Below, piece after piece: positions 41,977 to 46,896 of a stretch of 64,000 bases of DNA (position 1 is its first letter; the number at the start of each line of letters is the position of its first letter). Source of the stretch: an uncultured Acidobacteriota bacterium (lineage in GTDB: Bacteria > Acidobacteriota > Vicinamibacteria > Vicinamibacterales > CAVVIG01); NCBI GenBank assembly GCA_963757655.1, contig CAVWSQ010000001.1:1970996-2034995 (forward strand), written 5' to 3'. Below the pieces are notes generated by a model, which had not been told where the DNA came from, ran no database searches, and saw only the letters and a program-made list of their open reading frames with translations. Made by a program: the position numbers and the translations under genes.

Positions 41977-44900
41977 ATGGCTCGGATCGATCTCGACTTG
42001 AGCGGGTTGCAGGCGGCGAGGCAGGAGATGGCGGCGCTGACGGCCAGGCAGCGCACGCTCGACGCCGCAGTCGCCAGCGCCCAGGCGGCCCTGGACGGTG
42101 CGCTGCGCGGTGGCGCCTCTCCCAACCTCGTCGCACCCCTGCGCCAGAGCGTCCAGCAGGCCGAGTCCAGCCGCGGCGAGCTGATCGCGCAACAGCGCGC
42201 TGCGCAGTCCCGCATCGATGCCGTCGCCGCTGGTCTCCTGCTCCAGCGCGACCCGGCGTTGATGGTCCAGGCGCTCGATGCGAAGCACCCGATTGCGCTG
42301 CTGCCGATGCGCCTGGAGACGCGCTACGTTCCGGTCGGCGCTCCGACCAGCCTGCGCATCCGCGTCTACCCTGACGATGTCAACACCATCGAACACGTGC
42401 CGGCGCTCACCCCAGACGAACAGCAGGCCGGCGTCAACTACTGGACCGCGCGCTTCGCCCACCAGGACGATGAGGCGGCGCGCATCCTGCGCGATCTGGC
42501 GACCGTGTTCGGCCGCGGCCGCGCCGCATGGATCGTACGGGTGCTGACGCCGGACAATCCGGTGCCCGGCGCCGGCGAGCAAGCGGCGCCGGTTTTTCCG
42601 CAAACCGATACCATCGACTCGCGTGCGAAAGCGACGCGCGCCATGCTCATGCCCGACCGCTGGTGTGCGATCGGCTATGCCGCAGGACGCCGCGAAGTGT
42701 TTCGTGTGTGGGGCAATCGCATCCCGGATGAACTGCTGCTGTCTCCCGACTGGCTGGCCACCGATGCGCCGGAAGCGCTGCTCGGCGGCGACCGGGCCTG
42801 GATGGTCGACTTCGATGCGGCGGTCGCCAAGGGCATGGCGGTCGAGATCACCCAGGAGGCCATCACCGCCATCGCCCGCAGCCAGCACGCCGTGCCGTTC
42901 AACCTGGCCACCGGCACGCTCGAGAGGCTGGTCGTGTTCGGCCTGGAATGGACCAGAACCGCCGATCAGAGCGCGGCCGATCTGACCGATCTGCTGGCCG
43001 CGCATCGCGATTCCACCGGCCTGGCGTTCGCGCCGCTGGGCACGCCGACCAACAACACCGAGGCCGCGGCCTCGGGCTTCAGCCCCGCCGACGAGCGCAC
43101 GCCGCCGCAGCCGCCGGCGACGGCGGGCACGGACAAGGACGCGCTGCAGTTGCTGACGTGGGCGCTCGGCCTCGCGCCGGACGCGTTGCCGGCGGACAAC
43201 ATCGCCAACGCGCACCTGGCCGAACAGCGCACCGCGCTGCACATGATGAACGTGCTCTGGCGCGGCACCTTTGCCGACTACCTGCTGGAATTGTGGAATC
43301 CACCGCTCGACGAGGACGCACGGTTTCTCAAGACGCCAGCCCTCTACGCGACGCGTGGCTATGCCGTGTCGTACGTGCGCGCGACTGGGGCGTTGCCGCT
43401 CGTGCGGGTCGGCAAGCAGCCCTACGGCATTTTGCCGGTAGTGGGTAAGCGCTTCGTCAGCAGCGGTTCGGCGGTCGAGACCGCCATCGGCAATCTGCTC
43501 GCGGTGCTGCGGCCGATGTGGGAACTGGCCAGTCGCGCGGTGCCGACGATGACCGATGGCAGCGTCGACAAGGCCAAGGACATCGTGCAGACCGCCGCGT
43601 GGTCGCAGACCGCGTTCTATCGCGACAAGGACGCGGGCAAGGCGCTGTGCAAGATCCCCAACGCCTTCACCGATGCGCAGCAAGCGAGCCGCGGCGGCCT
43701 GATCCGGACGCTGCTGGCGGCGGTCGGCGTTACCGACTACTGGCTGGCGCACATCTACAGTTGCAGCGATTTCCTGCCCGACCCGCCGTATTCCGCCGGC
43801 TATCTCGCCGGCGTGCCGTGGGTGCTGGCCGACGCCAAGAATCCGAAGCAGGAAGCGGCCGACGATGTCACGTTCTCGGCGGCCAACAACTACCTGGCGA
43901 AGATGGCTGCCGCCTCGATTCAGTCGCCGACCGCGGCGGGACCGCTGCTCTACGCCAACCAGTCCGGTCCGGCGCTGCTGCAGGCGCTGGTGTCCTATTC
44001 CATCCAGAAGGAAAAGGGCGACGCGGTCGAAGGGTTCGCGCTGTCGAGTGTGGCCGTGAATCAGGTGGTGTCGCTGGCGGCGACCAGAATGCCGTACGTC
44101 GAGGCGACGCTCGACAACGAGGCGATGTTCACGGTGCAGACCCACAAGGAGCTCGCCAACGTCTCGCTCGCCTCGGTGACCGGCAAGGCCACGCTGGGCG
44201 AGCACGTCGCCAATACTCTGACCGTGCCGTTCGAGGCCAAGCCGGCCTCCGCCTATCGGGCCGCCGACATGCTCTCGCGCTCGGTCGATCACATCGTCGC
44301 CCCGACGCGTAACCTCGCTGCCGTCAAGTTGAGCCTCGACTATCTGGCCGGCCGCAGCGTCGGCGAGCTCAACATCGCCTTTCGCAGCACGCTCGATTGC
44401 TTTTCCTATCGCCTCGACGCCTGGCTGGCCGCGCGCGCGAACCGCCGTCTCGAGCAGATGCGCGACCAGAGCCCGGCCGGCGTCTACGTCGGCGGCTTTG
44501 CCTGGGTGGAAAACCTCAAAGCCGACACGCGCCCCGACAGCGAGGGCTACCTGCTGGCGCCGTCACTGGGACAGGCGGCCAGCGCCGCCATCCTGCGCAG
44601 CGGTTTCATGGCCAACCACGAGTCGGGCGCCTTCGACATCGCGCTCGATTCGCACCGCACCCAGCGCGCGGTCGGCATCCTGCAGGGGCTGACGCGCGAT
44701 CAGCCGCTGGCCGCGCTCTACGGCTACCGCTTCGAGCGCGGGCTGCGCGACGCCGAGCTGGGCCGGTTCATCTGGCCGTTCCGTCTCGCCTTCCCGTGGC
44801 GTCCCGCCGGCGCGGCGCCAACCGATGAATCGAGCGAAGCCATTGGCGCGCGCGACGTGGTCGATGGGGTCGCGCTGCTCGATGCCTGGGAAAGCGACCC

Positions 44901-46896: not shown

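Follow-up and report, generated by a model that had tools for sequence, protein, structure and literature searches.

A giant protein of a widespread four-gene cassette, and two compensating frame breaks in its copy from an acidobacterial genome

Introduction

The A subunits of Tc toxins (TcA/YenTcA) are very large, mostly helical, leaderless proteins encoded in cassettes of giant proteins; they carry hydrophobic channel helices and a polymorphic C-terminal toxin, and they have an Rhs/YD cocoon as a partner. Polymorphic toxins are also large and lie in mobile cassettes, sometimes beside variable hydrolase genes, and their C-termini vary. A third point of reference is DUF6603 (PF20248), a catalogued domain of unknown function. 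Here we analyse a 64,000-nucleotide stretch of DNA (hereafter, the window) from an uncultured Acidobacteriota bacterium of the order Vicinamibacterales (GenBank assembly GCA_963757655.1, contig CAVWSQ010000001.1, positions 1,970,996 to 2,034,995 of the forward strand), and in particular p3, an open reading frame (ORF) of 1639 codons that is the third of four large genes, p1 to p4, packed into one cassette.

This cassette opens with a full-length DUF6603 protein, but the domain describes p1 and not p3, for which neither Pfam nor NCBIfam holds a model. p3 is comparable to the Tc toxin A subunits in its size, its mostly helical character, its missing leader and its place in a cassette of giant proteins, but it has no sequence or fold similarity to them, no hydrophobic channel helices and no polymorphic C-terminal toxin. 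Pfam shows no Rhs/YD families in p1, p2 or p4, so the cassette contains no Rhs/YD cocoon partner. With polymorphic toxins p3 shares its size, its mobile setting and, in some loci, neighbouring hydrolase genes that vary, but its C-terminus is conserved instead of variable. Finally, residues 9-89 of p3, as modelled, are the only part of it to superpose on known structures, namely on antiparallel coiled-coil arms such as the N-terminal arm of seryl-tRNA synthetase (Foldseek probability 0.96-0.98 over ~80-120 residues); this match is one of generic supersecondary structure (E > 1) and no evidence of homology. The rest of p3 is unrelated, and the arm itself is optional.

Results

The window's p3 is a true third gene in a widespread cassette of four, p1(DUF6603)-p2-p3-p4, and belongs to a very large and real protein family that has gone undescribed. 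A word-index protein search, in which 8,000 candidates were scored, returned 824 homologues at E <= 0.001, the closest of them 96% identical, and a HMMER scan with residues 440-1639 of an intact homologue returned 4,539 clusters (50% identity) at the same threshold and 1,868 at E <= 1e-30. Relatives of p3 are also encoded by 553 pattern-matched stretches in species-representative genomes. The 79 loci retained from such genomes for synteny and taxonomy span ten bacterial phyla, with members in the Alpha-, Beta- and Gammaproteobacteria, Acidobacteriota, Gemmatimonadota, Actinomycetota, Chloroflexota, Cyanobacteria, Myxococcota, Bacteroidia, Eremiobacterota and Verrucomicrobiota, and the cassette occurs furthermore on 13 megaplasmids, including haloarchaeal and Streptomyces plasmids. 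Every one of the 79 loci with enough flanking DNA has the order p1-p2-p3-p4, p3 always being third and two genes downstream of the DUF6603 gene.

The window cassette conforms to this arrangement: its four genes are all large, co-directional and tightly packed, and the stop of p1 overlaps the start of p2. A codon-usage hidden Markov model (HMM), trained on the window's own genome, reads p1 as a single coding frame, and the p2 homologue in locus L001 is, like p2 itself, 1147 residues long. The same genome carries a paralogous second cassette, intact and on the minus strand of another contig (C3:211786-230448), with genes of 1125 (p1), 1057 (p2), 1830 (p3) and 620 (p4) codons; its p3 is about 35% identical to that of the window. 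Among 31 genomes of the same order, only seven hold any member of the family, and the window's cassette subtype was seen in no relative that was searched; the full cassettes closest to it come from Betaproteobacteria, at 62-67% identity. This patchy distribution, together with the betaproteobacterial affinity of the nearest full cassettes, is what horizontal transfer would leave behind, and points to a cassette that is horizontally mobile and patchily distributed.

Clear homology of p3 to a characterised protein family was looked for and not found. There was no match for p3, its intact homologue, p2 or p4 in Pfam, NCBIfam, PADLOC or PHROGs, p1 alone being recognised, as DUF6603, and none of the four cassette proteins matched a defence-system model in PADLOC-DB 2.0. 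The PDB, queried with single sequences and with profiles, gave coiled-coil noise only. Foldseek returned nothing at E <= 0.001 from the PDB for either of two 1200-residue structural models, and nothing at that threshold from BFVD for the C-terminal one. The p3 family is without a known sequence family or fold, and the searchable literature holds no mention of DUF6603, PF20248 or DUF7800, a domain that recurs beside some cassettes (below). When the four cassette proteins were compared by hhalign, p3 showed no relation to p1 or p2; the sole match was a weak one between p3 residues 911-1018 (~44707-45030) and p4 residues 121-223 (~47276-47584; probability 35%, pairwise E = 4e-4), which may reflect a shared helical module or chance and is not relied on here.

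The first-pass annotation, made from the window's letters and ORF translations, took the whole ORF for one protein of 1.6 thousand residues. The ORF is real and is open throughout, from ATG to TGA, and all of the peptides quoted from it do occur in its translation, but residues ~1265-1552 are out of frame with respect to homologues. Past about residue 1264 the translation turns Arg/Gly/Ala-rich for ~290 residues, the last 87 residues being ordinary again, and the +1 frame of the DNA under this stretch reads as normal protein. Every homologue aligns to just 77% of window p3, even the 96%-identical one (P0005), which comes from a Vicinamibacterales metagenome-assembled genome (MAG), is exactly 1639 residues long and continues with the window's +1-frame sequence. 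Followed by segment, P0005 matches residues 1-1267 at 96% and residues 1550-1639 at 94% in the nominal frame, and residues 1265-1553 at 95% in the +1 frame. Four signature motifs of p3 (LPxRLETR, GxQPYGxLP, RLDAW and GYRFERxLRD) are all present in the nominal translation, and the fifth, FHYDAPGARxPQ, is found only in the +1 frame.

At the nucleotide level, a MAFFT alignment of the window gene with its homologue in L001 (95.3% identical) contains exactly two gaps, one each way. The HMM places its switches close to both, returning to the nominal frame at 46643/46644, and a six-frame search of the window's genome likewise gave p3 back as three pieces in two frames. As assembled, p3 does not read as an uninterrupted single frame, but departs from intact homologues by two compensating 1-bp differences. 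One base gained and one base lost thus turn the best-conserved C-terminal domain into Arg-rich junk in the conceptual translation: as given there, residues ~1265-1552 are not the real protein, and 288 residues are out of frame in an ORF that is still open. No selection is needed to explain this openness: the high GC content of the DNA accounts for it, and the alternative frame is stop-free in the intact homologue too.

For the two slips, consensus error in a long-read assembly is more probable than real mutation. Applied to the whole genome (6.43 Mb in 8 contigs), the HMM finds 132 same-strand frame switches at which read-through in the upstream frame exceeds 60 nt; examples lie at C1:1303782-1306422, C5:321294-323667, C1:432402-434196, C6:250635-253557 and C1:259587-261870. 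Five of the 132 were translated and three of those tested against Pfam, and in each of the three one ordinary gene proved to be split between frames: an FtsX permease domain (MacB/FtsX) broken at position 73 of its 120-position profile, one outer-membrane barrel domain (TonB-type) spread over two frames, and a DUF5117 plus Met-zincin protease. Within-gene switches that occur genome-wide, and were split genes in three of three tests, make consensus error the likelier cause; they also imply that protein predictions from this assembly are broadly affected by indels.

Alternatively, though less probably, the indels could be real, in which case this copy of p3 was recently inactivated or remodelled, its C-terminal domain giving way to 288 Arg/Gly/Ala-rich residues and its translation still reaching the native stop just upstream of p4. 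Several observations weigh against assembly error and lend themselves to such a history. The assembly has only 8 contigs; the distribution of homopolymer lengths falls smoothly, with no obvious compression and no deficit of 7-mers (it is uninformative on error); the first indel sits in a GG dinucleotide, outside any long homopolymer; and a uniform error rate of ~1 per 50 kb would not lead one to expect a pair of opposite indels in the same gene with 863 nt between them. The intact paralogous cassette on contig C3 could, moreover, make the window copy dispensable. However, some 130 similar switches in ordinary housekeeping-type genes fit assembly error much better than they fit mass pseudogenisation, and p1, p2 and p4 of the same cassette are intact. 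Read in its ancestral frame, the shifted stretch keeps a signature of purifying selection, with 26 synonymous and 14 nonsynonymous differences from L001 as against 121 and 47 in the part upstream, so that no decay of constraint is visible. Selection would also not favour a second indel 863 nt downstream that leaves the domain destroyed, and broken copies of p3 occur in other long-read-style MAG loci as well. When metagenome contigs were scanned for exact patterns at either indel site, nothing from the same strain turned up.

The other loci with a broken p3 are L016 and L025, long-contig MAGs with MFD isolate names, in which p3 is divided into shorter ORFs and the flanking cassette genes match normally. 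These breaks look like the window's indel problem. The coordinates of the breaks, of the cassette genes and of the modules of p3 are collected in Table 1.

Table 1. Features of the p3 cassette. Nucleotide positions are those of the window, except where a locus is named.
Feature	Nucleotides	Strand	p3 residues	Basis or remark
p1, first cassette gene	35209..38490	+		1093 aa; carries DUF6603 (PF20248), Pfam E = 5e-115
p2, second cassette gene	38487..41930	+		1147 aa; no known family
p3 ribosome-binding site AAGGA	41966..41970	+		read from sequence; 7-11 nt upstream of start
p3 nominal open frame	41977..46896	+		1639 codons
Antiparallel two-helix hairpin	42001..42243	+	9-89	AlphaFold2 helices 9-44 and 49-89, GGASPN turn between
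Conserved alpha/beta module	42262..43056	+	96-360	PIALLPxRLETR / LRIRVYPD beta-hairpin, GTPTNNT loop; 42% mean identity
GTPTNNT loop	43039-43059	+	355-361	after a short strand, just before a poorly conserved low-confidence linker
Helices and GxQPYGxLP hairpin		+	396-545	model and alignment
Variable helical region	43612..44316	+	546-780	22% mean identity; length 179-250 residues; pLDDT dips
Most conserved core, all-helical	44317..45156	+	781-1060	RLDAW, APSLxQA, GQPLAALxGYRFERxLRD
Small alpha/beta domain		+	1061-1195	model
Helical bundle, conserved beta-sheet domain (FHYDAPGARPPQ) and C-terminal helix		+	1196-1639	homologue's model
First frame break	45766..45770	+		one extra base relative to L001, near 45769; MAFFT alignment and codon-usage HMM switch at 45770/45771
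Stretch with real coding frame +1	45770..46632	+	~1265-1552	helical bundle and conserved C-terminal beta-sheet domain with FHYDAPGARPPQ
Second frame break, run of six C	46631..46636	+		one base fewer than L001; reading returns to nominal frame; DNA alignment and codon-usage HMM
Final 87 residues, nominal frame again	46633..46896	+		conserved; homologue alignment
p4, fourth cassette gene	46916..48820	+		634 aa; no known family; GGGAG ribosome-binding site upstream
PhoD-like gene upstream of p1 in other lineages	L038:669-3242; L042:828-3485; L056:464-3139; about ten more loci			weak to moderate match to PhoD-like phosphatase, plus DUF7800

p3 is an acidic protein of about 1,640 residues, made in the cytoplasm: its net charge is about -57, no signal peptide or transmembrane-like segment was found in it, and its highest 19-residue Kyte-Doolittle mean, 1.94, falls within Ala-rich or strand segments. 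AlphaFold2 models were built with alignments of 57-58 diverse homologues, the C-terminal part being modelled on the intact homologue and not on an edited window sequence. The model of residues 1-1200 has a predicted local distance difference test score (pLDDT) of 82.4 and a predicted template modelling score (pTM) of 0.75; that of homologue residues 440-1639 has a pLDDT of 81.2 and a pTM of 0.52. As modelled, p3 is a multi-domain, mainly helical protein. An earlier description of it as a helical giant was roughly right, with about 47% helix in the models overall, but passed over 8% strand, several beta-hairpins and small alpha/beta domains.

An N-terminal coiled coil had also been proposed, for the first 90 or so residues. 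The region is predicted to be helical, but as two helices that break at residues 45-48 and fold back into an antiparallel hairpin; its heptad score is marginal, being reached by 25 of 500 shuffles, and the hairpin is absent in three Myxococcota loci. Residues 1-95 are the least conserved part of p3, at 24% mean identity across 57 homologues (the measure of module conservation used throughout), and the hairpin is its fastest evolving part in the comparison with L001. A hypervariable recognition region was considered and set aside: nonsynonymous changes relative to L001 are modestly concentrated in the N-terminal hairpin and nowhere else.

Conservation is highest elsewhere in the chain. The GTPTNNT loop is invariant or nearly so from Proteobacteria to Chloroflexota, and we know of no motif that it fits. 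The part of the homologue's model that corresponds to the stretch garbled in the window is the most confident of all, its pLDDT lying mostly in the range 86-97. Conservation extends to the C-terminus, where mean identities are 45% (residues 1431-1560) and 38% (residues 1561-1639). Columns that are invariant across the 57 homologues, which are 25-66% identical, hold Pro, Gly, Trp, Arg, Asp, Glu, Gln, Leu, Ala and Val. Invariant His, Cys, Ser and Lys residues are absent from this set, which argues against a conventional hydrolase, transferase or nucleoside triphosphatase site.

The genes around the cassette differ among lineages. Among 101 co-directional cassette neighbours, PhoD-like phosphatase is the only recurrent family (13 of 101), DUF7800 is found in seven, and no lysis or secretion genes recur. 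In a distant clade, whose p3 is 27-35% identical to that of the window, a co-directional gene of ~850 codons lies directly upstream of p1; its product gives a weak to moderate match to PhoD-like phosphatase, plus DUF7800. A few loci, such as L082, carry a PLD-like gene at this position instead. On a Salinigranum marinum plasmid (NZ_CP100462.1, 334581-354217; locus L091), five genes encode a PhoD/DUF7800 protein, a DUF6603 p1, p2, p3 and p4. The p3 of this haloarchaeal cassette is 2322 residues long and has a BGTF haloarchaeal surface domain (residues 1745-1829) inserted between core and C-terminal domain, and its p4, of 904 residues, ends in a lamin-tail domain. Signs of toxin-like organisation were looked for as well: four long family members (1944-2266 residues) contain no toxin domain and gave nothing in Pfam beyond one sub-threshold FG-GAP match, and neither toxin/immunity families (Pfam; long homologues) nor a recurrent small downstream gene beside the cassettes was detected.

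Discussion

On balance, we lean slightly towards p3 being a structural subunit without catalytic function, which would form a large complex together with p1, p2 and p4. From N- to C-terminus p3 consists of an optional hairpin arm, a conserved alpha/beta module, a variable helical region, a strongly conserved helical core and a conserved C-terminal alpha/beta domain, and it would join the other three cassette proteins as a structural part of one assembly. Some lineages would then supplement the complex with enzymatic and binding functions, either in trans or by insertion: there, it may be joined by the product of a phosphodiesterase gene, PhoD-like or PLD-like, and by immunoglobulin-like (Ig-like) binding domains. 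The first-pass annotation had noted no enzymatic motif, in agreement with our finding no enzymatic domain in any family library, and had offered scaffold or effector as roles for p3. A scaffold fits what the sequences and models suggest, namely no catalytic family or fold and no invariant His, Cys, Ser or Lys. An effector with the variable, toxin-like C-terminal tip that was also raised is not supported by the alignments, in which the last 200 residues are among the best conserved, or by the long family members, which lack a toxin domain.

What such a complex would do may be hinted at by its occasional partners. Given the PhoD- and PLD-like genes and Ig-like binding domains found in other lineages, it may serve in conflict, whether defensive or offensive, and might position or deliver a hydrolase. 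A bolder proposal, which we put forward as speculation and think rather unlikely in its entirety, is that p3 would be the main scaffold, with folds not seen before, of a new class of horizontally mobile four-protein machines that deploy phosphodiesterase-type (PhoD-/PLD-like) effectors, or modules for surface binding, when cells are in conflict with one another or with viruses; these machines would assemble in the cytoplasm and occur in thousands of bacterial and haloarchaeal lineages. Several points weigh against these interpretations. The four-protein complex is suggested only by the fixed gene order and the close spacing of the genes, the nearly invariant GTPTNNT loop, like H140, lacks an explanation if p3 is non-catalytic, and p3 may yet have a new active site even though known catalytic motifs are absent. 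Furthermore, defence genes near the cassettes are scattered single matches with no clear enrichment, and no PhoD or PLD gene lies beside the window cassette.

Alternatively, p3 could itself be the effector or enzyme, catalytic or pore-forming, in a fold that databases do not yet contain. We consider this improbable. It would suit the largest and a strongly conserved protein of the cassette, with its GTPTNNT loop and several Arg, Asp and Glu residues invariant across phyla, and the failure to match any fold leaves room for a new activity. However, p3 has no P-loop or metal-binding signature in addition to having no invariant His, Cys, Ser or Lys, and the hydropathy maximum given above leaves no hydrophobic helical hairpin or transmembrane-like segment for a pore. 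The separate PhoD-like and PLD-like hydrolase genes attached to the cassette elsewhere suggest, moreover, that enzymatic function is supplied in trans.

A horizontally moving multi-gene cassette of very large, leaderless proteins, with Ig-like surface and binding domains on the archaeal p3 and p4, might also recall Tc (ABC) toxin complexes or phage-tail-like injection particles, p3 then being a large helical shell or scaffold in a distant analogue or relative, but we think this very unlikely, given that neither Tc or Rhs/YD families nor those of sheath, tube, baseplate or other phage proteins were detected in any of the four proteins, that the TcA prepore ranked only 23rd in Foldseek (E = 5.1, probability 0.01) and BFVD gave no match for the C-terminal model, and that lysis or secretion genes are not recurrent beside the cassette.

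Whatever its activity, the p3 family is a large blank in prokaryotic biology: it comprises thousands of clusters from ten bacterial phyla and haloarchaea and gives confident models, and no fold or domain model describes it. The fixed gene order, the horizontal movement and the occasional phosphodiesterase genes and Ig-like domains together suggest a machine that is self-contained and might be a conflict system of a new kind. The domain map sets conserved modules apart from variable ones, and distinguishes the optional hairpin arm and an insertion-tolerant site between core and C-terminal domain; it thereby offers constructs for expression, structural and knockout studies in cultured carriers of the cassette, among them Rubrivivax gelatinosus, Sulfuriferula multivorans, Pelomonas and Variovorax. 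The window copy also carries a practical lesson, since in high-GC long-read assemblies an ORF that looks intact can conceal two compensating indels, and translations need to be checked against homologues before they are used.

Some further observations concern the surroundings of individual cassettes. The sole match in a phage collection, locus L092 (MT835531.1, labelled 'UNVERIFIED: Bacteriophage sp.', from human faecal samples), is a 40-kb contig of 77% GC that carries p2, p3 and p4 in order; a phage origin of the cassette was rejected, as this unverified contig looks like misfiled bacterial, probably actinobacterial, DNA. Beside the paralogous cassette on contig C3 lie further co-directional genes, of 657, 290 and 300 codons, to which no confident Pfam family could be assigned. 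In the window itself, the neighbours of the cassette are a DUF4331/TPR/HupE operon and polysaccharide-synthesis genes.

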